Under the pieces are notes generated by a model. The model made no database searches. It was not told where the DNA came from and saw only the letters and a list, made by a program, of their open reading frames with translations. A stretch of 64,000 nt of DNA from a virus: the IMG/VR virus record IMGVR_UViG_3300034072_000373, positions 12,030 to 76,029 of that record; one strand, 5' to 3'. Within the stretch, counting starts at the first letter, position 1, and every line of letters begins with the position of its first letter. Both the position numbers and the translations under genes were made by a program. Of the stretch, positions 11,769 through 56,898 are shown one piece after another.

Positions 11769-13844
11769 ATGGCTGCACTAACTTGGAGAAACGTTGCTGC
11801 CCCTGATTTCTCAGGAGTTCAGGGGGGCATCAGCAATGCTGGTGAATTCTTTAATCGTGCTTTCTCCGGTGGTCAGAAGACTGTGGAGAATATTCAGAAT
11901 ATCCGTGAGGATAATGCTGTAAAGGAAGTCTTGGGCAGAGCCTTGGCTTCCAATGATCCTGCTGCAATTCAGGCAATGGCTGCTGAAGCTGCTCAGAATC
12001 CTAATTTCACTCTTCGTGGTTTGGATACTCTGAACCGTCAGGTGGATACCCTTCAGCGTAGGAATCTTACTGAAGAACAGATTCTTGGTGCCAGACAGGG
12101 TAGAGAACAGGGAGCTACTCTGTTTAATCGTGGTGAGCAGGAATATAGCGCAAGAGAAGCTGCCAGAGGTGAAATCCTGAAACTATATGGTTCAGGTATG
12201 ACACCTGATAAGATTGCTCAAGCTGCTGCATCCAATCCAATTCTGGCTGCATTGCCTACCAAGGATTTGATGGGAATTATTGATGACTCCTACAATCGTA
12301 GGGATCGCAATCTAAATTATGATATTCGCTCAACTGAATTTGCAAACAGTCAGGCAGATCGTAATGACGCATTTGTGGTAGCAGACGCTCTATCCACCAT
12401 TGACCAATCTTCATTGACTGATGAAGAAAGATTCTCCGCACTTGAGAGAATGCGGGGTAATCTCACCCCTAGACAATATACACTTGCCCGTAATCGTCTT
12501 ATGGGTGGTGGAACAGGTGGTGCTGGCGGAGGTGAATTTGCTGCTCCTGCATCTGGCTCATTTTCTGCTGGTGGTTCCAATTATGCTTTTGGAGCGCCAC
12601 AGAAAGCATATGCAGATGTCTTCTCCAGTGCTGGTGTCAGTAACAATGTTGTCGCTGGTCTACTAGGTAATGCCCACGTTGAGGGTGGTTGGACTGGTAA
12701 AGAAGGTGACGGTGGTGCTGCTGGTGGTATTGTCCAGTGGAGGGATGGAAGACGGGATGCTTTCATTCAGCGTAATGGTGTTGACCCAACAAAAGCATCA
12801 CCTGAAGTTCAGGCAAGACATGTGATGTGGGAACTTTCTACTCCTGAAGGTAGAAAGGTTGCTGGTATTACGGAACAGCAAGCCAATGCCATTTTGAATG
12901 CTAAGTCACCTGAAGAAGCTGCTGAATATATTGACCGTTTTTATGAGCGTTCATCTGGTCAGCATCGTCAACAGCGTATTGCTGCTGCGGCTGCATATGG
13001 TCAATTGACTCGTCCCGGTGATCCTGTTGCTAATGGGCTTCAGGGAATTGCAAACAGTGTGGACACTGATCGTGCAAGAGCACAACAGGGCGGTTCAGTT
13101 GGTGCCAGAATTCTCCGTGAGAATGCTGGTTCAAAGAAGGATCGTGCTGATGTTATCAGTGATGTGATGACTTCTCTTGGAGCCTCTGACAGAGGAACAG
13201 TTGAGAATATCTTCAATGATATGCGTAACCGTTTCCTTGCCAATGGTTGGGAAGCTCCAAATGATGCAATCATTGGTGCCGCTCTAAAGACTGGTTCAAC
13301 CTATGATCGTAGACTTGGTGATCGTATCTGGGATTGGACAGGTAATCTTTTTGGAGCCACGGATGCTGTATCAGGCGGACTTCAGGTAGATAGAGATAAT
13401 CTCTATAATCGTCTGAAGGATATTGTGCAGAGTCCTCAAGCTTCAAATGTGGCTGTTGTGGAAGCTCAGAGAAATGCTGGGGAACAAGCTGCATCTGTTG
13501 CAGATGCACAGTATCAGCAGGCAAGAGCACAACGTGAATATGCAGAGAATGAGGTTAGATCAGGCCGTAGACCTAACATCAATCTCAAACCATATTATGA
13601 TCGTGAGAACCAAGCACTAGCAACTTCACAGGCTGCAAATGCTGCTGTTAGGAATTCAGGTTTGACTAATCCCGGTGTTCAGCCTGTTGGTTCCTCAACA
13701 GGTAAACCTACTCAGGGAACACCTAAGTCAACTGATGACTTTGTGCGTAATGCTGCTGATCGACGTAGGCAAACTGCACCGCCTCCAAGAGCATCCAATG
13801 GATGGCAATTGCTCAAAGATACGGTAACTGGTATCTTCGACTAA
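11769..13844 (+). CDS. Ejection protein (N4 gp51-like) with a phage tail lysozyme-like domain
   Basis: LTWRNVAAPDF start; AGLLGNAHVE..GGIVQW..FYER..R motifs; Cys-free. Confidence 0.75.
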   Translation: MAALTWRNVAAPDFSGVQGGISNAGEFFNRAFSGGQKTVENIQNIREDNAVKEVLGRALASNDPAAIQAMAAEAAQNPNFTLRGLDTLNRQVDTLQRRNLTEEQILGARQGREQGATLFNRGEQEYSAREAARGEILKLYGSGMTPDKIAQAAASNPILAALPTKDLMGIIDDSYNRRDRNLNYDIRSTEFANSQADRNDAFVVADALSTIDQSSLTDEERFSALERMRGNLTPRQYTLARNRLMGGGTGGAGGGEFAAPASGSFSAGGSNYAFGAPQKAYADVFSSAGVSNNVVAGLLGNAHVEGGWTGKEGDGGAAGGIVQWRDGRRDAFIQRNGVDPTKASPEVQARHVMWELSTPEGRKVAGITEQQANAILNAKSPEEAAEYIDRFYERSSGQHRQQRIAAAAAYGQLTRPGDPVANGLQGIANSVDTDRARAQQGGSVGARILRENAGSKKDRADVISDVMTSLGASDRGTVENIFNDMRNRFLANGWEAPNDAIIGAALKTGSTYDRRLGDRIWDWTGNLFGATDAVSGGLQVDRDNLYNRLKDIVQSPQASNVAVVEAQRNAGEQAASVADAQYQQARAQREYAENEVRSGRRPNINLKPYYDRENQALATSQAANAAVRNSGLTNPGVQPVGSSTGKPTQGTPKSTDDFVRNAADRRRQTAPPPRASNGWQLLKDTVTGIFD

Positions 13845-13876: not shown

Positions 13877-13914
13877 ATGCTATGTGAGGTCAAAATCACC
13901 TAAAGGTATTGTGT

Positions 13915-16900
13915 ATGGCAAACCCCTCTTCCACCATTATGAATGAGTATCTGTCTAAGGCTAAGCAAACAGGTGTTGCTAATGCCACTGCACAGAAGAA
14001 GCAGACTATGGCTGCTCAAGCATCTGTAAATGATGATGCTCTTTACCGTATTGCTTCTGCTCAAAGTAATGGCACTGGCAATTCCATGGAAGGTTACGAA
14101 CGTGACCTTAGAACCATGGGAACCTTTGATCTAATCGGTAAGTATGGTTCGGGGATTGTTGGTGATCTGTCACGGCTAGAAAATGCTAGAGAGCGTTATC
14201 GTGGTGATGAGTCATCCCAGCGTGGTTTTGGTGATGTAGTTGGGGATGCTGCTATTGGTGTGCCCACTGCATTTGCATCTGGTATCCATTCAATTGCAAA
14301 TTTGATCGAAGCCCCATTTGCTCCAGAGACTGCTGCAAGAGATGCGTTGGCAAATGCTAAGTTTGGTGAATGGGCTAACTCATTCCAGAGTGATGCACTC
14401 AATCAGCGTAGACGTGCTGCTGGTGCCGATCTCCAAAATACTCAAGCAGATAATAAGGCTGCACAGGAAAGAGGTGAGATTAACTCGCTAGAGCGTATGG
14501 GCAGAGATGCCTATGATGCTGCTGCACGTTATCTGGATGATGGTGCGCTTACATCAGACGTTGTTGCTCAGGGTGTTGGTTCACTCTTTATTGGTGGTCC
14601 AATGATTAAGGGCTTCAGTAAGGTTGGTCAGGGTATCCTGAAAGCTGCTGGCCGTGGTGAATCTGTCCTAGCTGGTAGGGTTGTTAATGCTGCTGCTGGT
14701 TCACTAGGTGTAGGCACACAGGAAGCTGGTGGTGCTTACGATCAGACTGTTCAGGCTGCTATGGAAAGAATGGCAGATAGAACTGATCTCACTGAAGAAC
14801 AGAAGCTGGAACTAGCTAATAAGGCTGGTCTGGAAGCTGCTGCTATTCAGGGAACTGTTGCTGCTGGGATTGGTCTAATTCCCGGCATGACTAACCTTGA
14901 ACGTGCTCCACTTGCTCTTCGTGGTTCAGTCCGCAATTCAGTCAAAGCTATTCTGGGTGAGACTCTTGAAGAAGCTACTCAATCAACTTCAGGTCAGTTG
15001 GCTCAGAATCGTGCTATCCGTGATGTGGTTGATCCAAATCAGGATATGCTTGAAGGTGTGGGTGAACAGACTGCTCTCGGTGCAATTGGTGGCTTTGGTT
15101 CTGCTGGTATGGTTCAGGCTCCAAGCCTTGCAGCTAATACTGCAATGGCTCCTGTCCGTGCTATCATGGCTAAGGGTGCTGAAATCAATTCACGTAGGGA
15201 AGCTGCACAGGTTCAGGAATTCTCCAATAATGTAGAAACTGTTCGTGCTGCTGGTCCTGTGAATATGGATGCAGTTAACACTGCCATTGATAACTCTGAT
15301 CTTGATCCAGAGATTAAGAACACTGCTCGTGCTCAGATTGATGGGATGATGCAGCGTGCTTCATACACCCCTGAACAAACACGCAATTATTCTCCAGAAC
15401 TTCAATCATATCTGGAAGATTCAATTGATAAGTTTGATGCTCTCGACACTGCTATGGCAATTGTGGAAGATTCTGACTTCACAAATGCACAGCGTCTGGA
15501 AGCAGGTGCTTATATCGCACAAACTGTTCTTCAGAATAATTCTCAGATCAAAGCTGATCTAGATGAAGCAATTGCTGCTATTCATGAGGATGACCCTGAA
15601 TTTGATAAGCTCATTGAATACAATGATCTTATGGATAAGATGGGTAGCCATCCTATTGTTCAGCGCATGGTTCAGCAGTTTAGGGAACAGGTTGCGGCAG
15701 TCACCCCTGAACAGGTGAATGCTGAAGCTATGGCAACTCCTGAAGGTAAGCAGACTGCTAGTGCAGTAGCTACTGCTGTGGCTTCTGATCCTGAAGCTGT
15801 AAGCCCAGAGGTTATCTCAACCATTTTGGAACATGATGAATCTGATCCTGAATTCTCACCAGTGAATCGTAAGATTCTGGAAGGTGCTCAGGCATATCAT
15901 GATATGAAGGAAACTCTGCGTAAGAATGCAGAGCAGATTGCCATTCAGAATATCAATGCTGTCACTGACAACATGATTAAGTCACGCTTTGAGGATAACC
16001 CACAGGAAGGTTCTCCTTTGGCTCTATCACTGCGTGACCATTACACCCGTTTCTATAATGCACTGATGGCCAATGATGATGTCTCTGCAAAGGATTACCT
16101 AGATAATCTAGGTTTCTTTGCTGCACACATGCAGAACAAGTTGGCCACTGTGAACTCAGCTATTGAGGACAATGCTTATAGTGAAAAGCTGGCTAAGCCT
16201 TATATGGCAGTGGTTCCAGCCAGAACTGCTGCACAGCGTAAGTGGGTTCCATCCAATCTCAAGATTTGGATGAATGGCAGAGCAAAGGACAGTGTGCGTC
16301 TGGCTAAGCGTATCCAGCTAGAAGCTCAGGCAATCACCAATACCTATAACAACCTTGTGGAGCAGAATCCTGAATTCAATCTTCCTACGATTGATGTAGG
16401 CACACTGAACCCTCTCTTTGATGGTTCAATTGATGAAGTCGTAAATCGGTATAAGGGTCAAAAGAATGTTCAAACGTCTACTTCTGACAGTAGCGGAAAC
16501 GCTAATCCTCAGCGGACTCAACAGTCTGAAGGAACGTCAGTCACGCAAAGCAGCCGAGAAGGCACTGAAGAAAGCGGAAGCGAAACTTCAGGAACAGAAT
16601 CCCGTGGTTCCAGAGTAACTCCTGAACAGGCACGGGGTATCTCTGACAGAGCACTACAGTCACGAATCACCAGTCTCGAATCAATGATCGAAGACAATAA
16701 GGCGACTGTGCAAGACAGAGCTACCCTTGCCGTTCTCCGTAAGGAGAATGCCAATCGTAATGCTGAAGCAATGCAGCGTGAACGAGAGGAACAGGAAGCT
16801 GAAGCTAAGGCTAGAGCGACTGAATCAAATCAGGATCAAAAGCCTAAAACTCCAGAAGTCACTGATTCTTCAGAAGATAATTCTGAGGAAAGCACTGATG

Positions 16901-19900
16901 CGTCTGAAGAATCAAATGTGGATGAAGAAGTTGAGGAGCCAAATGCTCCTACCCTTCAGTCAGTTTACACTGATCTTCATGAAGGCTCTAACTTCCTGAC
17001 TATGTTCAAGGCTAAGTTTAAGAAGAGCCGTATTGCAACGAACACTTCACCGCAGGCTTTTGTAGGTGATGCACTATTCGATAAGGAAAGTCTGAAGAAG
17101 GTTTCTGGAACCAATGCAAATGGTTATACCAAGAAGGTAGCTCAGGCTTATCACAATCTATTCCGTTCAATGGGTGTTGTTCAGGATGCTCTGAACAGGC
17201 AGCTTGCTGCTGCCATGAAACAGAATCCCAACATGTTTAAGCGGGATGATAGATTCAACTTGGTTCAGGGTAAGGTTCTGAACTTCGTTGGTCCTGATGG
17301 TAAGTGGAATCCTCAGATCATTGAGAAGGCAATCATGGCTGCAATGCAGTTTGTGATTACCGGCAACAGTGTCCACTACAACAAGGATAAGGAAGATATT
17401 GCCAAGGCATTTGGTATGGACCCTTCCAATGTAACTCCTTGGATTGAAGGCGTAGTCAACAACACCATCATGTATAATGATGCGGTCTATCAGCTATCAC
17501 GTAAGATTGCTGATTACCTTGGTGTGTCTGTTGATCCTAATGCCCCAATGGGCATTGCCAACGGCATGATGGATGGTCTGGCTATTGAAGTGCTGAGAGC
17601 CTTTGAGACTGCTGGCTATATTGAATCTGGTATTCTCAAGACTGGTAAGAGCCAGCATGGTTATCTCGATTTCCGTGGCTTCACTCCCGGTAAGAAGACT
17701 AAGCTACAGAATGAGGCACGCCAGAGAATTAAGGATGTGTCTTCATATCCCAATGCAATGGATGACATTGTTCTGACTGAGAGAGACAATCCAGTCTCGA
17801 TTGGTGAGCAGTTGGATCGTATGCCTAAGACTCGTCTGCGTCAGGATACTCCCCTTACTCGTGATGAGCAGCGGGCTGTTAGACTGATCCAGAATACTCC
17901 ACTGTATGCCAATACAACTATGGCTAATCTGTATCAGAAGCTGGGCAAGGATAATCTTGTTCGTCTGTTTGGTTCACCAATTGCTGATCCAGCTAAGTTG
18001 AACAGGGAAGACCTACTCTCAAAGGAAGGCAAGAACCTCACTGTGATTTCTGCCTTTGATGCCTTTGAGAAGTATTTCTCCATGCTTCAGGAATATGCCA
18101 ATGACACCAAGGATGCTCTGGGCAATGTTCCAATGTATTTTGGTTCAGAGATTACCTCAGTCGGTCGTCTGATGATGATCGGTGAGCAGAACCCTGTTGC
18201 TGCTAAGATCATTCGTGAATTCCTCCTACCTACTAAGGCAACGGTGGATATGAATGATCCAGTCAATGAGCATAATTACTATCTCATGATGGCTCAGGCT
18301 TTGGGTAAGAAGCTGGACAAGATGACTCCAGAACAGGCTGTTCAACAGGCTAAGGATACCCTGTTCTCTGAGGACATGGGTAATCTGCTGGAGACTCTTG
18401 AAACTCTGATGGGTGATGGTGAAGTCACTGTAGAGGCAATGAATGTCCTACAGGATAATATCAAATCGCCATTCATGCTTCATGCTCTGACTGATTTCAT
18501 TCGTTACAATCAGGCTAAGGCTGAAGGCAATCTTCAGAGATTCACCACCTCACTGTATCTGGAAGCTGATGGTAGAACCAATGGTCCTGCTGGTGCCCTG
18601 TTCCTGTATGGAACTGGTGCATTCACTTTGAACCAGCTTCGTGATTTCCAGAGAGTAGGTGTGTTCCCCGGTGATGCTGCTGGGACTGAAGCTGAGCCTA
18701 ACTTCTCAGGTAAGCAGAAGATTGCTGATCTTTATGAACTAACTGCTGATCGCTTTACTAAGCGTCTTGGTTCACTGGTCGATGATATTCTGAATACTGC
18801 ACGGGCTGCTAATCGTAAGGGTCAGATCACCGATAGATATGAGAACCAAATCCGTAACATGTTTGGTGCGGTGACTACGCTTATCCACGATACAGGTAAT
18901 GGCATTGTCACCAATGCAAAAGGTAAGCTGGAGACTACTCGTGGTTCTGTGAAGAATCCTCTGACCAAGTTTATCTATGGTGCAGGTGAAGCCTCAATCT
19001 CTGCTGGCATCACTCAGGATATTCTGGCCAGCTTCTATGAGGCAGTTTCAGAACATCTGACCACAGGCAGCAATCCAGTAGCTTTTGCTAACATGCAGAA
19101 TCTCATTGGACACTTGGTTCATAATAAGCTGGGGACTCGTAAGTCTGATGGTGTGAGCTTTGTTTTTGACAAGCAGAACACCGATTTCTCATTCCCTGCT
19201 GATGAAGCTGGTTGGAGAAACTTCAAGTTTACTTCTGAACAGGTCAACACAATCAATGCCAATGTCAGAGCAATGTATGTGAATCCTATGGTTCGTTCCA
19301 TCAATTCAGTGATGGTCGATACTCTGGGAACCACTGGTCTGCTTATCGCAGCTTCCAACATGCAGAATGAACTGTATGCAAAGCTGATGGATGAAGCGAT
19401 CAAGAATGCTTTGAAGGAAAAGAAGCGTGCTGATCCTAAATTCCAGAACCATCACTTCCTGTCAGAGAATGAACTGAAGAAGATCAAGAATTCACTCAAT
19501 TGGGTTAAGCCCCAGATTGATGAGAATCTCCAGTCATTGAATCTCAGCCCTACTGAGGCTGGTCTGACTATGGACAGTGGTAGTGAACTGAAGTTTGTGA
19601 GCAGCCTTGATGGCAATCACAATGTTCCCGGTCAGGTCAATCTTCCCGGAGCCATGGGTGTTAGAGCAGTGCCTCTGACCACCATTAACTTTGGTGATGC
19701 CAGAATGGTAATCAATGCTTTCATGAAGGGTATTGAAAAGGTTCTGGCTGTCTATGACGGTATGCACATGTCACTGGATCGTATCCCTGTGGATTCGGTC
19801 AAGTATAATGAAGCTGTCAGTGAAGCATGGGACTTCAATGCTCTGAAGGTTTTCACTGAGCAGTTTGAAGGTATGGTTAAGAACCTGTCACCTGAAATGC

Positions 19901-22900
19901 TGGCTGATATGGCATCAGATGAAAATACTCCTGAAAGCATTCTGCGTGATTTGCAGAGAGCTTCACGGGAGATTGATGCTCGTCAGTATGCACTTAATCA
20001 GGTTGCACTATCTGTAGACCAGATGGCTGCTACTGGTTCATCATTCACCAAGAACATGGATAAGACCGCTGTTGATGAACAGCAGACTTTTCAGATGCTG
20101 AATGATGCCTATGATGAATTCATGGCAAAGCAGGAGCCAAAGGAAGTATCTAACTTTGAGCTTCCTTCACGTATGAAGGGTCTTGCTGTTGTCCATAAGG
20201 AATCTGGTGCATATGTAATTCGTGCTAATAAGCTGATTGAGAACATTGCAGCATTGACCACCGATAAGAATCTTATCTCATTGGTTCAGTCACTGAAGCT
20301 GCCTAATAGCGAAGATGTAAAGATCATCTTTGGCTCAGCAGAAGCTCGTAGAAAATATGCTCCTGACCTAATGGCTAAGAGCAAATCAACTACTCGTGGT
20401 CTGTCTGATCCAGCTACCAATCGTATTCTATTGAACACGCAGTCAATGGAAACACTGGTGCATGAACTTATTCATGCTGCCACTTTCAATACTGTTTACA
20501 ATAGCTTGAATGGTTCTGCTTCAGAAGAACAGATGGATGCTGTTGAACGTATTGAAGCTTTGATGGACCAGTTCATTAACATGGATTATGATACGACTGG
20601 TTGGTCAGATAAGGCTAAGACTGCATATCGTCGTCTAACCAACGTCATTAATAATGCACTGTCTCAGAATGAGAATGATCTCTTTGTTGATGAGATTCTC
20701 AATCGAGCAATTGCTGTTAATGAATTTATGGCTTGGACACTTTCCAATCAGGAGTTGGGATATGTTGCATCGAAGACGCAGGCTTCACCAGAGATTGTCC
20801 GCTGGACTCAAAAGGCTTGGAGAGCGGTTCAGCAATTCTTCCGTGCTGTTAAGTTCTGGGAACCCAGACATGATATCCTTAGCAATCTGCGGTTTAACAC
20901 TCAGATTCTGACTACAGAGACTGAGGCACCTTCGGTTGCTGATATCGCCAATGGTATCTCACTGGCTCATGAAGAGGCAGAAAGCCCTGTGCTGCGTAAG
21001 CTGTTCTCTCAGTTGAGCACTGCTCTTCAGGGTAGAAGAGAAGAAGCCAATGGCACTGCTAACGTAGAGAGCATTGGTATCGGTGGTAGGGTAGCAAATG
21101 ACTTCAGTGCTGCATTCCCAATGGATGCTGAACAGAAGAATCAGTTTGCTGTAATGGTTACTGCTATGTCTCAGGGTATGGGCCTTGAAGGCAATGCCTT
21201 CGCTCGTATCGCTGATATCTATCAGACTGTTCTGGAGAAGCTGGATGTCACTGACTTCCTAGCAAATCCTGAATCAACCAACCCTGCTGAGATTGCTACG
21301 GCTACTGCAAAGTATAATGCTGTTATGGGTAACACCACTGCACTCACTGGTGCAGATGGAGTGTCAACCCGTATCCCAGCATTCTTGGCTCTGTCACTAA
21401 TTGATCCAGAATTCAGAAAGGTTCTTGAGAAGCTCAAGACTCCTAAGAATAAGGATTGGAAGTTTGAAGGTGTTGGAGCCACTCTGAATGATCTTGGCTC
21501 AAGAGCTATGCAGGGTCTGAACAACTATGTTGCTCCTACCGGCAAAGCTACCAATGCTAAGGAAGCAGTGGACAATCTCATTGGGCATATGACTCGTGAT
21601 CTGTCCAAGGCACAGACTGCTGCTGAAATGGCATCACGTAAGGGTCATGGTTATCTGGACAAGGCGAATGATTTCTTTGTCGAGAACATGGAACGTCTGA
21701 GCAAGATTGCTGATGAGAAGCTCTCACGGGTAATGGATACTACCCAGAATAAGTATGTGAATATCGCTGCTGGTGTCGGTAAGATGCTGACAGGCGTTAT
21801 CAATGCTGAAGTGGGTGAAGCCAACTCAGAAAGCATGATGCAGATGATTAACCGTCTGAAAGGTTGGGATACTATCCGTGCAGCCTATTCAGATATCGTT
21901 GGTAGAACCAAAACCAATGCTGGCGTCTATGATCTTATCAAGCTTGTGAAGTCAGTGGTTTCACAGGGCCGTGAGAAGTATCGTGAGCAGTTGCCCAAGA
22001 TTATCAAGGGTAAGTTCAAGAAGGCTCCTACGGCTGCACAGTGGACTTCACTGTTCCGTGGTATTGCCAAGACTGACATTGCTGCTCTTCGGAACCATAT
22101 GACCCAGAGTGAAATGCTTGAGGTCATTGGTTCAGATGCAAATGTCCGTGCAGAGATTGCTAGACTGGAAGGTATCCTGCCTGACAATGTTCTGAAGGCT
22201 GACAGAATTGCTAAGGCTAAGCAGCTTGCCAATTTCATGAACACAGGTGTTTATGGCGATATGCTTCTGCGTAATGCAAAGGCTGTTGCTGATCTGAGAG
22301 GCATGAACAATCAGGCGAATTCAACTGTTGATGAAGTTCAGACAATTGATTCACTGATTTCCCTTTATGCTTTCCAGAGCATGGATGCTGCACATCGGAA
22401 CACCATTCGTGAACTGATGACCAATGAGCCAGATGCTATGAAGTATCTGATTGCTCAGGTGCAGGGTGCTAGACAGGATGAATTGGCCAAGGTCACTGAT
22501 GATGTCGCCTACAATGTTTATAAGGGCTATACCCCTTCTGAACAGCGTGAAGGCATCAGCTTGATCGTTGCTGAAGATACCGACCGTGCAAGACTGGAAC
22601 GTCTGGGTTATGTCCGTAAGGGTGACTACAATGGCTCAAACAAGGAGACTCGTGCGAGCTTCAATACCAAGGGCTATTACTATTCACCTGTGACTGGTAA
22701 CAACCCATTCACTCAGGGCATTTCACAGAATGTGAATGAGACTGTCGGCGGTGTTGATCCTATCCGTGGTTTCAGCTTTGGTGTTCGCCATGCTGGTATC
22801 ATTATGGACCCACGTAAGGTTCAGCGGATTGCTAATAGCCCACGGACTGATCGTGGTAATGAGAGCCTGTCACCCATCTTCAACAAGGATGGGGATATCA

Positions 22901-24282
22901 TTGCCTTTGAGCGGACTATTGATCCTGCAATGGATGCACTGCTGGATCGTAGCACTGATCTTGCTGATATGCTGGGTGCATGGAGAGGTCGTCAGTTTGA
23001 GGAAGAGAATGCAATCGTCTTCAATACTGAGCTTCTGGGTGCTCTGAAGGATATGCACGATAGACGCCCTGCTAATAGCAACGGTGACTATATCAATATT
23101 CTGGATGATGCTGAGTTGGCTCGTGATCCAGTGTTGGCTGATGCTGTGAAGCTGCTGTCTCCTAGAATGAAGGCAGAAGCTGCTGAACTGTTCGGTGAGA
23201 ACAATTTCATTCCTGTCCGTAAGGATATGCTGAATGATGTTGTTGGTTATCGTGCTGCATCTGTAGGTGACTCATGGACTGGTGTTACCCGGTTCAATGA
23301 GAACACACAGAATGCAATCGTTAATCTGGCAACTGGTTTTCTGGGGAGGGATGCCTTCAAGAAACTGGTTCAGGCTGAACGGTTCGTGGAAGGTGTAGTG
23401 GGCGATATTCGTAAGACCATTGTGGTTCGGTCAGTGATCGTCCCATGGGGCAACTTTATCTCTAACATGGGTCAGCTACTTACCCGTGGTGTTCCACTAC
23501 ATGCTTTGATCTCTGGTGTTCCAAAGAAGCTGAATGAAATTCAGACCTACGCTAAGAGCCAGAGAGATCATATTCGTTATGAGTCTGATCTGCTGGCAGC
23601 TAAGGGTGCTAACGATACTAGAGGAATTGCTCAGGCTGAAGCTAAGCTAAAGACAATTGAGGATATGCAGAAGCGTCTAAGCATCTGGCCTCTAATTGCT
23701 GCTGGTGAGTTCAGTTCAATTGCTGAAGATTTGGATAAGGCTGATAATCCACTTGCCACTGGTAGATGGATGGATTGGATTGAATCCAAGATTCCTCAGT
23801 CTGGTATGTTGAAGGAGCCACTGAAATACTATTGGCTGGCTTCAGATACCCCTCTGTTCAAAGCACTACAGACTTCAGTGAACTATGGTGACTTTGTTGC
23901 AAAGGCTGTCCTGTATGACCATATGACCAAGACTAAGAAGATTTCAAAGGAAGATGCTCTTCCCAAGATTTCTGAAGAGTATGTCAATTACGATAAGGTT
24001 CGTGGTCGGGTTAGACAGAAGCTGGAGAATGTTGGCTTGCTCTGGTTCTGGAACTTCAAGCTTAGATCAACAAAGGTTGCGCTAAGTATGATCCGAGAGA
24101 ATCCAGTCCATGCCCTGTTCTATTCCTTGGTTCCAACTCCAGATATTCTTGGTGATATTGATTCACCACTTCTGGATAACATCTTCTATCAGGCAACCGA
24201 TGGTTCGCTAGGATATTCGATTGGACCGGGGATGGCAGTTCAGGGATTCAATATGAATCCATGGAACAGTTTGATCTTCTAA
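13915..24282 (+). CDS. Virion-encapsidated RNA polymerase (vRNAP, N4 gp50-like)
   Basis: ~3455 aa; T7-superfamily motifs ITSVGRL, LYLEADGRTNGP (A), RGSVKNPLTKFIYG (B), VYDG (C); no Cys seen when started at ATG 13915 (AAGGT RBS). Confidence 0.95.
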   Translation: MANPSSTIMNEYLSKAKQTGVANATAQKKQTMAAQASVNDDALYRIASAQSNGTGNSMEGYERDLRTMGTFDLIGKYGSGIVGDLSRLENARERYRGDESSQRGFGDVVGDAAIGVPTAFASGIHSIANLIEAPFAPETAARDALANAKFGEWANSFQSDALNQRRRAAGADLQNTQADNKAAQERGEINSLERMGRDAYDAAARYLDDGALTSDVVAQGVGSLFIGGPMIKGFSKVGQGILKAAGRGESVLAGRVVNAAAGSLGVGTQEAGGAYDQTVQAAMERMADRTDLTEEQKLELANKAGLEAAAIQGTVAAGIGLIPGMTNLERAPLALRGSVRNSVKAILGETLEEATQSTSGQLAQNRAIRDVVDPNQDMLEGVGEQTALGAIGGFGSAGMVQAPSLAANTAMAPVRAIMAKGAEINSRREAAQVQEFSNNVETVRAAGPVNMDAVNTAIDNSDLDPEIKNTARAQIDGMMQRASYTPEQTRNYSPELQSYLEDSIDKFDALDTAMAIVEDSDFTNAQRLEAGAYIAQTVLQNNSQIKADLDEAIAAIHEDDPEFDKLIEYNDLMDKMGSHPIVQRMVQQFREQVAAVTPEQVNAEAMATPEGKQTASAVATAVASDPEAVSPEVISTILEHDESDPEFSPVNRKILEGAQAYHDMKETLRKNAEQIAIQNINAVTDNMIKSRFEDNPQEGSPLALSLRDHYTRFYNALMANDDVSAKDYLDNLGFFAAHMQNKLATVNSAIEDNAYSEKLAKPYMAVVPARTAAQRKWVPSNLKIWMNGRAKDSVRLAKRIQLEAQAITNTYNNLVEQNPEFNLPTIDVGTLNPLFDGSIDEVVNRYKGQKNVQTSTSDSSGNANPQRTQQSEGTSVTQSSREGTEESGSETSGTESRGSRVTPEQARGISDRALQSRITSLESMIEDNKATVQDRATLAVLRKENANRNAEAMQREREEQEAEAKARATESNQDQKPKTPEVTDSSEDNSEESTDASEESNVDEEVEEPNAPTLQSVYTDLHEGSNFLTMFKAKFKKSRIATNTSPQAFVGDALFDKESLKKVSGTNANGYTKKVAQAYHNLFRSMGVVQDALNRQLAAAMKQNPNMFKRDDRFNLVQGKVLNFVGPDGKWNPQIIEKAIMAAMQFVITGNSVHYNKDKEDIAKAFGMDPSNVTPWIEGVVNNTIMYNDAVYQLSRKIADYLGVSVDPNAPMGIANGMMDGLAIEVLRAFETAGYIESGILKTGKSQHGYLDFRGFTPGKKTKLQNEARQRIKDVSSYPNAMDDIVLTERDNPVSIGEQLDRMPKTRLRQDTPLTRDEQRAVRLIQNTPLYANTTMANLYQKLGKDNLVRLFGSPIADPAKLNREDLLSKEGKNLTVISAFDAFEKYFSMLQEYANDTKDALGNVPMYFGSEITSVGRLMMIGEQNPVAAKIIREFLLPTKATVDMNDPVNEHNYYLMMAQALGKKLDKMTPEQAVQQAKDTLFSEDMGNLLETLETLMGDGEVTVEAMNVLQDNIKSPFMLHALTDFIRYNQAKAEGNLQRFTTSLYLEADGRTNGPAGALFLYGTGAFTLNQLRDFQRVGVFPGDAAGTEAEPNFSGKQKIADLYELTADRFTKRLGSLVDDILNTARAANRKGQITDRYENQIRNMFGAVTTLIHDTGNGIVTNAKGKLETTRGSVKNPLTKFIYGAGEASISAGITQDILASFYEAVSEHLTTGSNPVAFANMQNLIGHLVHNKLGTRKSDGVSFVFDKQNTDFSFPADEAGWRNFKFTSEQVNTINANVRAMYVNPMVRSINSVMVDTLGTTGLLIAASNMQNELYAKLMDEAIKNALKEKKRADPKFQNHHFLSENELKKIKNSLNWVKPQIDENLQSLNLSPTEAGLTMDSGSELKFVSSLDGNHNVPGQVNLPGAMGVRAVPLTTINFGDARMVINAFMKGIEKVLAVYDGMHMSLDRIPVDSVKYNEAVSEAWDFNALKVFTEQFEGMVKNLSPEMLADMASDENTPESILRDLQRASREIDARQYALNQVALSVDQMAATGSSFTKNMDKTAVDEQQTFQMLNDAYDEFMAKQEPKEVSNFELPSRMKGLAVVHKESGAYVIRANKLIENIAALTTDKNLISLVQSLKLPNSEDVKIIFGSAEARRKYAPDLMAKSKSTTRGLSDPATNRILLNTQSMETLVHELIHAATFNTVYNSLNGSASEEQMDAVERIEALMDQFINMDYDTTGWSDKAKTAYRRLTNVINNALSQNENDLFVDEILNRAIAVNEFMAWTLSNQELGYVASKTQASPEIVRWTQKAWRAVQQFFRAVKFWEPRHDILSNLRFNTQILTTETEAPSVADIANGISLAHEEAESPVLRKLFSQLSTALQGRREEANGTANVESIGIGGRVANDFSAAFPMDAEQKNQFAVMVTAMSQGMGLEGNAFARIADIYQTVLEKLDVTDFLANPESTNPAEIATATAKYNAVMGNTTALTGADGVSTRIPAFLALSLIDPEFRKVLEKLKTPKNKDWKFEGVGATLNDLGSRAMQGLNNYVAPTGKATNAKEAVDNLIGHMTRDLSKAQTAAEMASRKGHGYLDKANDFFVENMERLSKIADEKLSRVMDTTQNKYVNIAAGVGKMLTGVINAEVGEANSESMMQMINRLKGWDTIRAAYSDIVGRTKTNAGVYDLIKLVKSVVSQGREKYREQLPKIIKGKFKKAPTAAQWTSLFRGIAKTDIAALRNHMTQSEMLEVIGSDANVRAEIARLEGILPDNVLKADRIAKAKQLANFMNTGVYGDMLLRNAKAVADLRGMNNQANSTVDEVQTIDSLISLYAFQSMDAAHRNTIRELMTNEPDAMKYLIAQVQGARQDELAKVTDDVAYNVYKGYTPSEQREGISLIVAEDTDRARLERLGYVRKGDYNGSNKETRASFNTKGYYYSPVTGNNPFTQGISQNVNETVGGVDPIRGFSFGVRHAGIIMDPRKVQRIANSPRTDRGNESLSPIFNKDGDIIAFERTIDPAMDALLDRSTDLADMLGAWRGRQFEEENAIVFNTELLGALKDMHDRRPANSNGDYINILDDAELARDPVLADAVKLLSPRMKAEAAELFGENNFIPVRKDMLNDVVGYRAASVGDSWTGVTRFNENTQNAIVNLATGFLGRDAFKKLVQAERFVEGVVGDIRKTIVVRSVIVPWGNFISNMGQLLTRGVPLHALISGVPKKLNEIQTYAKSQRDHIRYESDLLAAKGANDTRGIAQAEAKLKTIEDMQKRLSIWPLIAAGEFSSIAEDLDKADNPLATGRWMDWIESKIPQSGMLKEPLKYYWLASDTPLFKALQTSVNYGDFVAKAVLYDHMTKTKKISKEDALPKISEEYVNYDKVRGRVRQKLENVGLLWFWNFKLRSTKVALSMIRENPVHALFYSLVPTPDILGDIDSPLLDNIFYQATDGSLGYSIGPGMAVQGFNMNPWNSLIF
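16466..16618 (+). CDS. Putative overprinted 50-aa ORF nested in vRNAP (+1 frame)
   Basis: AAGGGT RBS, ATG, MFKRLLLTVAETLILSGLNSLKERQSRKAAEKALKKAEAKLQEQNPVVPE*; the vRNAP frame becomes S/T/G/E low-complexity over this span. Confidence 0.55.
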   Translation: MFKRLLLTVAETLILSGLNSLKERQSRKAAEKALKKAEAKLQEQNPVVPE

Positions 24283-52567: not shown

Positions 52568-53734
52568 CTACTGTATTGATGATGATTTTACGTGAACCTT
52601 GGTTCCAAATGGAACCGTGGCAGTGGGATTGTCCAGAACCACCCAGATCAGGGGGACTTCGTAAGACAGTGGTTGCATTTCAGGAACGTGCATATCTGAG
52701 AAGATAATGACGCCTGTGGGTTTGGTGTCCTCAATCCTTGCATGGACTGGAACCAGAGACGTTCCGCCTCCACCGTGGATTTCATATTCTGAAATATCGG
52801 TGTTTCGATCAATCACCTCAGTGTGGGTGATACGAGTATCGAATTGACTGAAGGTCATCTTGTCAGGCTTATATTGCTCTTTGAGATATACAAGCTCAGA
52901 GAGAATACGCTGGATTTGGCTTCGAGAGATTGAGCCAGACACATCAATGTAAACATCAATGTGGGCCAGCTTTCCCTTATCCTTGGCTCGATGGGGAAGA
53001 TACATATTGGTGTATCGTCTATTGGGACGAGTCCACTTGTATTTGATATGACAGAGTTCCGTGAGGAACTTCTGAATATGCCTTTCCCATGGGACAGCAG
53101 GATTGAGATAGGCATTCACTGTCTCGGTTACTTCACCGGGAAGTGTGCCTGCCTCTCCAGCTTGTTCAGCAGCATGGATAGAACGGATGATATTATTTAC
53201 CGTCTTCTGTGGTGTGGGACATTCTTGCATGTCCCCACCATCTTCAGCATTGCCCCATGAACCGGGAGCAAGCCCTCCAAGCAGTGGAACAATCTCATAG
53301 ATTTCCTCTTCAGTTTTGCCGAAGAGACTCTGATCTTTCCAACAATTCTCAAACCCTTTGAATGAGTAACCATCCCGTTCAAGATTGTTGTTGATGACGA
53401 TATCGCAGGCGACATTCCATTGATATGGATCACGATCACCACGACGCTGCATGTGCATTCTGGCTGGGTGCCAGACTTCGTGCATCAGAACAGTCGGCCT
53501 ACACTCAACGTCAAGTTCTAGGAACCACTGAGGATTCCAAGCATAGAACTCACCATTGGTGCAGGCCGTCTGGATACCAGTCGTCCAAAAGAAATTCATG
53601 CCACAGAGCATTGAGCCAAAGAATGCTGAATTCTTGCCTAAATAGATTCTTGATCGGGTGATATCCAGAAGACGATTTAGCTCACGCACATCTAGGCTTT
53701 GAAAGTCTTCAAGTGGTTGGACTGGTTGTTCCAT
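52568..53734 (-). CDS. Metallopeptidase + vWA domain protein (N4 gp25-like)
   Basis: TACTNG, HEVWH (HExxH), WNVACD..IN, IDVSGSI (MIDAS), GGGGT, FSD. Confidence 0.88.
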   Translation of the reverse strand: MEQPVQPLEDFQSLDVRELNRLLDITRSRIYLGKNSAFFGSMLCGMNFFWTTGIQTACTNGEFYAWNPQWFLELDVECRPTVLMHEVWHPARMHMQRRGDRDPYQWNVACDIVINNNLERDGYSFKGFENCWKDQSLFGKTEEEIYEIVPLLGGLAPGSWGNAEDGGDMQECPTPQKTVNNIIRSIHAAEQAGEAGTLPGEVTETVNAYLNPAVPWERHIQKFLTELCHIKYKWTRPNRRYTNMYLPHRAKDKGKLAHIDVYIDVSGSISRSQIQRILSELVYLKEQYKPDKMTFSQFDTRITHTEVIDRNTDISEYEIHGGGGTSLVPVHARIEDTKPTGVIIFSDMHVPEMQPLSYEVPLIWVVLDNPTATVPFGTKVHVKSSSIQ

Positions 53735-54770
53735 TGAGATACCTCGCAAGGTTGATGAAAGCCTTCTTGAATGCTGGATGTTCTTCCAGCGCAGGCTGAC
53801 GAATCTTCACACCCCGATAGAACAGGATGCGGAAATCGAGAGACATACGGTCGATATATTTTGCCATGGTTCCGAAATTCTTTTCGTCCACATTGCTCAT
53901 GAGCATACCGACAGTAGCCCAATTTATGTCGTTGGAATGTGAGATTTCAAGGGTTTCTGCTTCACGCAGAATACGGGCAAGGGTTGGAACCTTGTGAGAT
54001 ACCTTGGTGTATTGCACGAAAGATGCTGCCACGCCTGAAGTGATAGTCCCACCGAACAGGGTAGCATCCAGATCAGTAAGCTCTGGCTTGTTCTTCAGGA
54101 ACCTGTTGATGAATGACCATGTGCGAGGACAGCAGAATGTCCTATCCTGATGCTCAGGACGGAAATCATGCAGTTCCTCTCCCTTGGTTCGAGCCAGATA
54201 TGTGACAAGGCGATTGTCATAATTCTGAGCCAAAGCAACATCTTCCAGCCATTCCTGCCAGTCGATACGTAGGTTGATGTGAATCACACGAGACTGCATT
54301 GCAGTGCTGAGATCATTCACAATTGCGTTTGAGGTGGTAAGATTACCAGCAGCAGTGATGACACAGCGTTCATGCAGAGGATGCTGACCAACAAAGTGGT
54401 CCAGAACTGGCTTATATGCAGCAGCCTGAACATCCCGCTCACATGAGTTGAACTCATCCAAGAAGAGCATAAAGCCCTCCTTACCATCAGGAATGGGAGT
54501 ATCCTGCATGGGGAAGATTTCATCGAATGGAGCAAAGCGAGCTTTACCATCTTCAGTGAATCGGGGAAGACCGCTGAAGTCTTCTGGAATTGATGTGGAC
54601 ATTCGGTGATCGACCATGTGAAGGCCATAGTCATCACATACATTGTGCATGATGGCTGACTTGCCCATACCGGGATCACTGGTGACGAATGGAACCAGAC
54701 CTACCTCGATACAGTCTGATACCAGAGTTTTCATCTGCCGTGGTGTGGCAGAAAACATATCTATGCTCAT
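53709..54770 (-). CDS. MoxR-like AAA+ ATPase (N4 gp24-like)
   Basis: SDPGMGKS, LFLDEFN, AAGN, CPRTW; paired with the vWA gene. Confidence 0.88.
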   Translation of the reverse strand: MSIDMFSATPRQMKTLVSDCIEVGLVPFVTSDPGMGKSAIMHNVCDDYGLHMVDHRMSTSIPEDFSGLPRFTEDGKARFAPFDEIFPMQDTPIPDGKEGFMLFLDEFNSCERDVQAAAYKPVLDHFVGQHPLHERCVITAAGNLTTSNAIVNDLSTAMQSRVIHINLRIDWQEWLEDVALAQNYDNRLVTYLARTKGEELHDFRPEHQDRTFCCPRTWSFINRFLKNKPELTDLDATLFGGTITSGVAASFVQYTKVSHKVPTLARILREAETLEISHSNDINWATVGMLMSNVDEKNFGTMAKYIDRMSLDFRILFYRGVKIRQPALEEHPAFKKAFINLARYLNGTTSPTT

Positions 54771-54786
54771 GGATTTCCTTACAAAT

Positions 54787-54819
54787 AAAAAAGCCCCCTA
54801 GATTTCTCTAGAGGGCTTT
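54787..54819 (-). terminator. Rho-independent terminator
   Basis: AAAGCCCTCTAGA-GAAA-TCTAGGGGGCTTT plus T run on the - strand. Confidence 0.85.
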
Positions 54820-54823
54820 AATT

Positions 54824-55249
54824 TCAGAACGTTCGGATTTCGCCGGAAAGCTCAATAGTAGTTTCCCTATTAGGCTTAGTGCGAATCCTGCCGATAGATA
54901 CGACCTTATTTGGATCATATCCGTTAGCCTTGAGGCGGGAACGAATAGCTCGTGCAGATTCCTTCATGACATAACCCACATGGGTCCAATCATATCCGGT
55001 CTCTATTTCACCAAATTGGACTTTGGGAATTGCTGCATAGACAGCAATTGCATTATCCTTGTCGTATGGGTTTCCGGGTTCAGGAACAAGTTGAACCATG
55101 TTCCCTATATTCTTCTTCTGCCACTTGTCGAAGTCTTTCCGATGGTGAGCACCAACAGCAGAGACTTTTATGAACGCAATTTCATTTGCGTATCTTTCCG
55201 ACCAAGTGCCGAGTTCGAGTTTACGGATACCCCACAGATCACCAGACAT
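54824..55249 (-). CDS. HIRAN-like domain ORF, probably expressed as a -1 frameshift extension of the upstream gene
   Basis: LVPEPGNPYDKDNAIAVY...HVGYV motif; no SD before ATG 55249; frame open and protein-like for 42 codons upstream. Confidence 0.7.
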   Translation of the reverse strand: MSGDLWGIRKLELGTWSERYANEIAFIKVSAVGAHHRKDFDKWQKKNIGNMVQLVPEPGNPYDKDNAIAVYAAIPKVQFGEIETGYDWTHVGYVMKESARAIRSRLKANGYDPNKVVSIGRIRTKPNRETTIELSGEIRTF

Positions 55250-55308
55250 TACATCTGTAATCAGTGCATTATCGTCCGGGATTTCTCCCGTCTCTGGGTC
55301 AAATGATT

Positions 55309-55375
55309 CCCCTGAATCATAGAGTTGAAAGATACTTTCCTTCTTCCCTTTTGGTTCAGGGGTTACTTGAAAGGG
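55309..55375 (-). promoter_or_regulatory. Putative -1 programmed ribosomal frameshift signal
   Basis: C CCT TTC heptamer (55375-55369), 6-nt spacer, 8-bp stem CCCCTGAA/TTCAGGGG. Confidence 0.7.
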
Positions 55376-55983
55376 TTCTTGAAACCGCCATCCCCCATGA
55401 GCATCATCAGCATCATGGGATTGGAGAACAGACCTCCGGCATTACCACCGCTCATCATGAGCAGAGGCAGCATGGAGGACATATCCTTGTCACCACTCAT
55501 CAGCATGAGAGGCAGGAGGCTATTCATGTCCATGGTTCCAGAGTTACCTTCACCACCGAACATCGAACCGAATGAACGAACGACAGTCAGACCGTCCTTA
55601 ACGCCCAGCATGGAAACACGCTTGGGACGGAAACGGCTGATATGGCCCTGAACATTGATCGTCTGAATCGAAGCCTTTGCAGCTTCTTCGTCGGAAACCG
55701 ACTTTTTGTCGCCGTCTTCCAACAGGAAACCATATGCCCTGCCATCGGATACAAGAATGTCCCCACGCTTCACTTCGGTAGCAGGCGTCAGCATTGCAAA
55801 TGCTGGGATTTCCATCGAGAAGAAATCCAATGGATTCTGGTCCAGAACATCATCCTTGCCCAGAGTCACCAGACCAGCATTGGTCTTGATGCCTGAAGTG
55901 CCGGATGCAAGATCGTAGCTCACATTGTCGATGGGACGAAACATCGTCTGCATCGCCTTATTCATCGTGCTTTTCATATCCAT
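55363..55983 (-). CDS. Hypothetical protein with Met-rich repeated C-terminus
   Basis: AAGGA RBS; LLPLMLMSG / MLPLLMMSG / NPMMLMMLMG repeats. Confidence 0.75.
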   Translation of the reverse strand: MDMKSTMNKAMQTMFRPIDNVSYDLASGTSGIKTNAGLVTLGKDDVLDQNPLDFFSMEIPAFAMLTPATEVKRGDILVSDGRAYGFLLEDGDKKSVSDEEAAKASIQTINVQGHISRFRPKRVSMLGVKDGLTVVRSFGSMFGGEGNSGTMDMNSLLPLMLMSGDKDMSSMLPLLMMSGGNAGGLFSNPMMLMMLMGDGGFKNPFK

Positions 55984-56510: not shown

Positions 56511-56515
56511 TTGTA

Positions 56516-56848
56516 TTGGCACTTCTGTTGTCAGGCAGTTCCCGCCCCTGTGCTTTTACGCAGCCATGCGGTAGTCGGAGACTACATCGTTGTCGTTGAC
56601 ATTTAAGTTTCAACTGTCAGCTTAGGGCTGCCAATCCGATAGCGTTCTGAATCAATCCACATAGTCGATCCTAGTTCACCCCCATCAACTACATTGGTTC
56701 GAAGTGTTCATACCACGTATTCGGGCGTCTCCGGGTTTCCAACCCTAGTATGGCGGATACCATACCGAACCAATGCAGATGGTGGAGGTGACGGGTGCTG
56801 CCCCCGTGTCCTCATGCTTCAATCATCATTCCGAATTACTATCATCGC
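56516..56848 (-). ncRNA. ssrA: Circularly permuted (two-piece) tmRNA, alphaproteobacterial type
   Basis: Acceptor piece ...GACACGGG-GGCAGCA-CCCGT-CACCTCC-A-CCA (ends 56780), intervening hairpin, then GGGGGTGAACTAGGATCGAC (starts 56683); G3.U70; tag VNDNDVVSDYRMAA* at 56600-56556; outer ends approximate. Confidence 0.92.
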
Positions 56849-56898
56849 TTTAAGGTAGTCCATCCTCTGGAACGTGTCCAGAGGAACGATAACGAGAA

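Follow-up and report, generated by a model that had tools for sequence, protein, structure and literature searches.

A gene for a methionine-rich protein (gene 1) and the HIRAN-containing reading frame that follows it are very probably a single gene, decoded by a programmed −1 ribosomal frameshift into a 206-aa protein and a 386-aa HIRAN fusion. They lie on the minus strand of a 64,000-nucleotide stretch of the IMG/VR virus record IMGVR_UViG_3300034072_000373 (positions 12,030 to 76,029; the whole stretch is hereafter called the window). The frameshift was first proposed from the letters of the window (the sequence-only reading), and a comparison across 11 lineages supported it. This assignment is based on the conserved frame relation, a U_UUY slip site, the structure behind it, protein coding of the linker, and lineages in which the downstream frame has no start codon before its domain.

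Organization of the two reading frames in the window

The features of the region are as follows.

55363–55983, minus strand: gene 1, zero-frame ORF of 206 aa, ending ..NPFK
55369–55375, minus strand: slippery heptamer C CCT TTC, X XXY YYZ in the zero-frame register, one codon before the stop
55363–55365, minus strand: TAA stop of gene 1, met by non-shifting ribosomes
55309–55362, minus strand: 54-nt hairpin, putative frameshift stimulator (RNAfold; 8+2+4+6 base pairs)
55250–55369, minus strand: linker of 40 codons read only in the −1 frame (QVTPEPK...), predicted disordered
54824–55249, minus strand: ORF of 141 aa from the first −1-frame ATG, which holds the HIRAN domain
54896–55171, minus strand: HIRAN domain, residues 67–158 of the 181-aa −1 segment (Pfam PF08797)
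54790–54819, minus strand: terminator-like hairpin and T-run directly 3' of the HIRAN ORF

The 3' end of gene 1 reads AAC CCT TTC AAG TAA on the minus strand. The hairpin begins 6 nt 3' of the heptamer (at +7), where an 8-nt arm at 55362–55355 pairs with 55316–55309; RNAfold extends the pairing to the 54-nt hairpin with a free energy of −23.1 kcal/mol. The gene end, the heptamer at 55375–55369, and the 8-bp stem after a 6-nt spacer were all recovered where the sequence-only reading had placed them. The hairpin had a z-score of −2.2 against dinucleotide shuffles; against mononucleotide shuffles of 90 nt, the value was larger, about −5. In E. coli, the hierarchy of slippery tetramers is A_AAG >> U_UUC > U_UUU, heptamers of the type H_HH.U_UU.Y rank with the most efficient, and C_CC.U_UU.C directs frameshifting at a high level (PMC4066793).

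A Shine–Dalgarno (SD)-like GGCGGT, which had been put forward as an additional stimulator, is indeed present at 55389–55384, about 8–9 nt 5' of the heptamer, but the stimulatory role found no support. Such an element, sought 6–17 nt 5' of the motif, was not conserved. We therefore rejected it as a general feature, since it is weak in the window (GGCGG) and missing in most relatives. A second SD-like motif, AAGGAA, is located within the 5' half of the hairpin (55331–55345, minus strand), 4 nt upstream of an ATC that is in frame as linker codon 13; this could be a weak non-canonical start or could have arisen by chance.

The −1 frame, open from 55441 to 54824, runs through ...NPF/QVTPEPK... to the ATG at 55249. 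No ATG, GTG, or TTG occurs between the −1-frame stop and this position, and no SD-like motif precedes the ATG. Products of 206 aa and 386 aa (205+181) are predicted. The open frame, the ATG without SD, and both sizes agree with the sequence-only reading. The chance of an open start-less −1 stretch of 40 codons in the window alone is about 0.18; the significance therefore comes from the comparison with relatives.

The linker was modeled with a pLDDT below 40, and the first 31 residues of the −1 segment were predicted to be disordered. The domain behind it, previously described only as HIRAN-like, was confirmed by a PF08797 match with E=1e-7 and 32.1 bits (gathering cut-off 24.7). Its profile matched PDB 3k2y at E=3.5e-7. 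The model of the HIRAN core had a pLDDT of about 75, and its top 13 Foldseek matches in PDB were all HIRAN domains (HLTF, lp_0118) with a probability of 1.00 and E-values from 5e-3 to 1.4e-2. The terminator-like hairpin at 54790–54819 probably marks the end of the two-ORF unit.

Gene 1 has an SD-like AAGGA 9 nt 5' of its ATG. The protein is composed of an N-terminal helix, a beta-rich domain (approximately residues 15–135), and a Met/Gly-rich repeat tail (approximately 140–200). The AF2 model had a pLDDT of 69, falling below 50 in the tail, and the Met-rich part was predicted at low confidence with short helices. No match for gene 1 was found in Pfam, PHROG, or NCBIfam, and Foldseek searches of the model against PDB and the ESM Atlas returned nothing named. 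Only residues 64–137 resembled solved structures (VIA-align, Z 6), namely the small beta-barrel of EF-P domain I/KOW/Tudor type, which is a common fold. BFVD matches were confined to uncharacterised phage proteins, including gp39 of Bacillus phage G. A metagenomic protein of 461 aa (P0070) consists almost wholly of the Met-rich repeat (..LLPLMMMGG..DPMMLMMLMGD..). The N-terminal domain of gene 1 is missing from P0070, so the repeat is a separate module. Identification of the pair as the tail assembly chaperones G/GT was considered and rejected: no chaperone match was obtained with PHROG or Pfam, and the neighbouring genes encode an ATPase (phrog_1297) and a DUF2201 VWA protein.

Conservation of the frame relation, slip site, and structure

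Homologues of gene 1 were found by tblastn in isolate phages at 25–43% identity. The sources were Roseobacter phage RDJL3, Ralstonia phage RP13, two Acinetobacter phages, ten records of T4-like Rhizobium phages, and six records of Vibrio phages; blastn of the region against isolate phages gave no match. Protein searches yielded 65 relatives of near-complete length, and a profile search yielded 1523 cluster representatives of the gene 1 family at E<=1e-3. A profile scan of metagenomes added five loci, and a scan of genome contigs found no relative. The comparison rests on 50 DNA loci (L numbers below) drawn from phage records, viral contigs, and metagenome contigs. Distant large-phage loci (L004, L023–L050), which have different C-termini and no −1 HIRAN ORF, were left out of the family evidence. 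Thirteen non-redundant loci with a HIRAN or HIRAN-like downstream ORF represent 11 lineages with 25–68% identity to the window protein, including N4-like contigs, RDJL3, RP13, the Acinetobacter phages, and the T4-like Rhizobium phages.

The downstream ORF was in the −1 frame relative to gene 1 in all 13 non-redundant loci and all 11 lineages. In the relatives, the −1 ORF is open from 3–25 codons before the stop of gene 1 and continues for 140–330 codons, and the +1 frame closes quickly. In L010, L011, and L016, it opens only 3–4 codons before the stop and thus brackets the slip site. The linker was open in all 11 lineages; in-frame stops, which would have spoken against a fusion, were encountered in none of them. 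Pfam HIRAN was detected in the downstream ORF in 9 of 11 lineages (L001, L003, L005, L006, L011, L014, L015, L016, L018, L019, and L020). Ten of these 11 matches scored above the cut-off and that of L005 below it. The −1 ORFs of the two Acinetobacter phages were HIRAN-like in appearance and gave no Pfam match.

A U_UUY slip site was present 0–4 codons before the stop in each of the 11 lineages, with strict X XXY YYZ heptamers in seven; U_UUY is the common core of the following sites.

C CCT TTC: window, L012, L005, L018, L014, L020
C CCT TTT: L006
G GGT TTT: RDJL3
G GGT TTC: RP13
T TTT TTC: Rhizobium phage, with a −1-frame TAG directly before
N CTT TTC: L013, L015, L016
N CCT TTT directly before TAA: Acinetobacter phages
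G GAT TTT: L019, L022

The G GGU UUY and N CUU UUC / N CCU UUU sites are outside the top heptamer class for E. coli. The codon before Phe ended in U in all 11 lineage representatives, and the share of such codon choices in the same genes ranged from 0.10 to 0.71. The product of the expected shares is 5.6e-7, which is optimistic, as the lineages are not fully independent. Conservation of the heptamer and of the frame relation, which the sequence-only reading had proposed as a check, was thus found at the level of the −1 relation, the open linker, and the U_UUY site.

Loci used as controls, L007 and L008 (tails ..SLRQTR) and Vibrio phage Va1 (..NYFDD), had neither a U_UUY site nor a −1 ORF, and no Pfam HIRAN was found in the tested downstream ORFs of Va1 and L007. 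Among 215 family members, 133 (about 60%) had Phe within the last five residues, the tail that accompanies the slip site, and another class had a PPLxRL-like C-terminal motif. Longer matches to the family were gene 1 proteins with N-terminal extensions or extra Met-rich repeats. The gene 1 proteins of L007 (2351–3247) and L008 (2480–3259), together with P0058, P0073–P0077, and others, form a second class of the family, in which the Phe tail is replaced by a conserved C-terminal sequence of the type (V/P)P(S/P)L(T/R)R that may be a different partner-binding motif.

RNA structure was assessed over the 90 nt following the slip site in 14 loci and in 112 random windows of the same loci, using z-scores from mononucleotide shuffles. 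The mean fold z-score was −4.37 after the slip site vs. −1.01 in the controls (Mann–Whitney p=1.2e-7), and the first paired base was located at +1 to +10 after the site in the 14 loci. The downstream structures share no sequence between lineages, as expected for independently maintained stimulators. The hairpin of the window was kept in L012 (98% protein identity) with one G-U to G-C change.

Linker coding, proposed mechanism, and rival explanations

According to the proposed mechanism, gene 1 and the HIRAN ORF would be one recoded gene. Most ribosomes would terminate at the TAA, which yields the 206-aa Met-rich protein. A fraction would pause on the 54-nt hairpin 6 nt after C CCU UUC, and the P-site tRNA-Pro (CCU to CCC) and A-site tRNA-Phe (UUC to UUU) would re-pair one base back. 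Translation in the −1 frame would then cross the disordered linker of 40 codons into HIRAN and produce the 386-aa fusion with the junction NPF/QVTPEPK. The ATG at 55249 may also be used for initiation to some extent. The analysis shows the anatomy of the signal, its conservation, coding selection on the linker, and the identity of the HIRAN domain; that ribosomes slip there, and with what efficiency, we infer.

The main alternative is that of two separate genes: a HIRAN protein of 141 aa would start at the ATG at 55249, or at the ATC behind AAGGAA, and the heptamer and the open frame would be incidental. Initiation at this ATG leaves the HIRAN domain whole and could add to frameshifting or, in the lineage of the window, replace it. 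The open stretch of the window is not improbable by itself (the p of about 0.18 given above), and an ATG with a good SD was present inside the −1 ORF of RDJL3 and RP13. All six GenBank records examined annotate two genes, and none annotates a frameshift. Against separate genes stand, besides the lack of an SD before the ATG at 55249, the substitutions in the linker. Between the window and L012, linker codons 16–40, all of which precede the ATG, contain eight synonymous and two non-synonymous codon changes; codons 1–15 are identical in both and hence uninformative. Between L013 and L015, eight synonymous and four non-synonymous changes were counted, beginning from the fifth codon after the slip. 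Judged by these substitutions, the linker is evolving as protein in the −1 frame, and purifying selection in that frame acts on linker codons 25–40, upstream of the ATG. Moreover, in L006 and L011 the −1 frame contains no canonical start codon (ATG, GTG, or TTG) upstream of the HIRAN domain. Open linkers lacking starts would arise jointly by chance with a probability of about 1e-10.5 if the lineages were independent, an optimistic value because they are not fully so. Independent initiation at 55249 as the only route to the HIRAN protein, named beforehand as a finding that would refute the frameshift, is therefore contradicted both by selection on the protein level upstream of the ATG and by the lineages without a start codon. 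Separate genes would also leave unexplained the constant −1 frame, the fixed wobble U of the U_UUY site, and the strong structure after it. We consider this alternative improbable.

In two GenBank records, those of Ab1-TPeters and RHph_TM30, the annotated starts of the downstream gene fall within the HIRAN domain. For the GenBank genes at L002 (4960–5478; PP763253.1 CDS0057) and L011 (3376–3693; MN988521.1 EVB93_017), the first HIRAN strand already contains or precedes the annotated start. The L002 and L011 proteins as deposited are therefore probably N-terminally truncated artefacts of an unannotated frameshift. In the RDJL3-like clade (L001, 4660–4800; L019, 2660–2800), a DnaJ-type CXXCXGXG zinc-finger-like segment lies between the slip site and HIRAN; it matched PF00684 with E=1.8e-5, below the cut-off.

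Transcriptional slippage, in which stuttering of the polymerase on the T/C run would add one base to some mRNAs and so fuse the ORFs, appears very improbable. The site is a pyrimidine run, with five to six consecutive T in L002, L010, and L011, but that of the window comprises no more than three T and three C. Known transcriptional slippage sites need runs of about seven or more identical bases. A hairpin 5–9 nt downstream and an exact X XXY YYZ register belong to ribosomal frameshifting and not to slippage of the polymerase. An assembly or sequencing error is hardly credible, as is a recent frameshift mutation in a single in-frame gene: a change of one base in a short homopolymer would be enough to join the ORFs, but 11 lineages, from independently obtained isolates and metagenomes, share this break of frame, and a single-base error cannot recur in all of them, no in-frame fusion of gene 1 and HIRAN was found among the 215 family members, and L012, which comes from another sample, has a junction identical to that of the window.

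Relation to known systems, genomic context, and possible function

In tailed phages, tail chaperone and capsid genes are the main known cases of conserved programmed frameshifting. As in lambda G/GT, the gene in the window ends just after a slippery heptamer, and a minority −1 shift would add a C-terminal extension; in lambda and its equivalents in most tailed phages, too, the two products share the N-terminus and the frame relation outlasts sequence similarity. Unlike G/GT, the gene of the window is not a tail gene and is located among early genes of DNA-metabolism type. The slip site is built on U_UUY instead of G GGA AAG, HIRAN is the part added, and a strong hairpin follows. The OrfAB proteins of IS3/IS911 are likewise produced by a −1 shift on X XXY YYZ near the end of the first ORF, which fuses a second functional domain and is stimulated by a downstream stem-loop or pseudoknot. 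Stimulators of the IS3 family span 17–131 nt (PMC4066793), and the 54-nt hairpin of the window is within this range. The IS3/IS911 motif is A AAA AAG, often with an upstream SD, whereas the window family has no consistent SD and its proteins are unrelated.

E. coli dnaX (tau/gamma) is a −1 frameshift of bacterial type in a gene related to DNA replication and sets a ratio of two isoforms, as is proposed for the window; its shift, which relies on A AAA AAG, an SD, and a hairpin, shortens the protein, whereas the predicted shift in the window lengthens it. The NS1' frameshift of West Nile and Japanese encephalitis viruses uses the motif Y CCU UUU and a downstream structure. This slippery sequence is almost the same as C CCU UUU in L006, N CCU UUU in the Acinetobacter phages, and C CCU UUC in the window. 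NS1' is decoded by eukaryotic ribosomes from an RNA virus with unrelated proteins, and the likeness concerns the signal only. The HIRAN domain of the window is similar to those of human HLTF and bacterial lp_0118 (PDB 4xzf, 4s0n, and 3k2y) by Pfam, profile, and structural matches. By analogy with these domains, it may bind DNA 3' ends. The HIRAN domain of HLTF is fused to an SNF2 helicase, whereas that of the window is reached by the predicted frameshift behind the Met-rich protein.

Directly downstream of the pair, the window carries the ATPase gene (phrog_1297; 53709–54770) and the DUF2201 VWA gene (52568–53749), and in the N4-like relatives the pair is again followed by ATPase and VWA genes. 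Elsewhere, DNA polymerase (RDJL3) and NAD-salvage genes (Rhizobium phage) are found beside the pair. A partnership of the protein with the RNA island next to it in the window, suggested by the sequence-only reading, gained no support, since quite different genes surround the pair in other phages. In the large-phage contigs L040–L050, a VWA-type gene (DETGSMG motif) comes after distant gene-1-like ORFs whose C-termini differ; it has an ATG of its own and overlaps the stop of the gene-1-like ORF. The Met-rich family may be functionally linked to VWA/ATPase modules. At 56514–56884 (minus strand), in non-coding DNA upstream of gene 1, Rfam gave a match to the permuted tmRNA of alphaproteobacterial type (RF04321, 90.8 bits; RF01849, 76.9 bits), and ARAGORN called nothing there; the tmRNA type suggests an alphaproteobacterial host. 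The length of a 3457-aa ORF at 13909–24282 (plus strand) is that expected for an N4-type virion RNA polymerase; this ORF and the occurrence of relatives on 73–78 kb contigs fit an N4-like phage.

We found no paper combining HIRAN, bacteriophage, and programmed frameshifting, and HIRAN is mentioned neither in PMC4066793 nor in the part of PMC5009743 that was searched. The mechanism is already known and the gene family is new to it; no paper describing this frameshift was found. The frameshift is placed here in a gene family that is non-structural and comprises at least 1523 sequence clusters, and the design spans N4-like, T4-like, and large-genome phages.

The function of the frameshift may be to set a fixed ratio between the plain Met-rich protein and a form predicted to bind DNA 3' ends, for use in DNA replication or repair. 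An oligomer with sub-stoichiometric HIRAN domains, as envisaged in the sequence-only reading, is conjectural. As a tentative and rather doubtful extension, the Met-rich protein might form a higher-order assembly at replication or repair sites, either an oligomeric scaffold or a condensate held by its Met/Gly-rich repeats. The frameshift would then fix the share of HIRAN-bearing subunits, so that DNA 3' ends (stalled forks, genome termini, nicks) would be tethered at a set density. If this were true, it would represent a widespread, so far undescribed phage system for handling DNA ends, with a stoichiometry set by recoding.

If confirmed, the frameshift would correct the annotation of genomes in which the assigned starts of the HIRAN ORF truncate the domain. 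Its U_UUY sites, with their varied stimulatory hairpins, would also offer natural material for research on bacterial frameshifting. The two-isoform, putatively DNA 3'-end-binding protein would then be a common, unstudied part of phage DNA metabolism.
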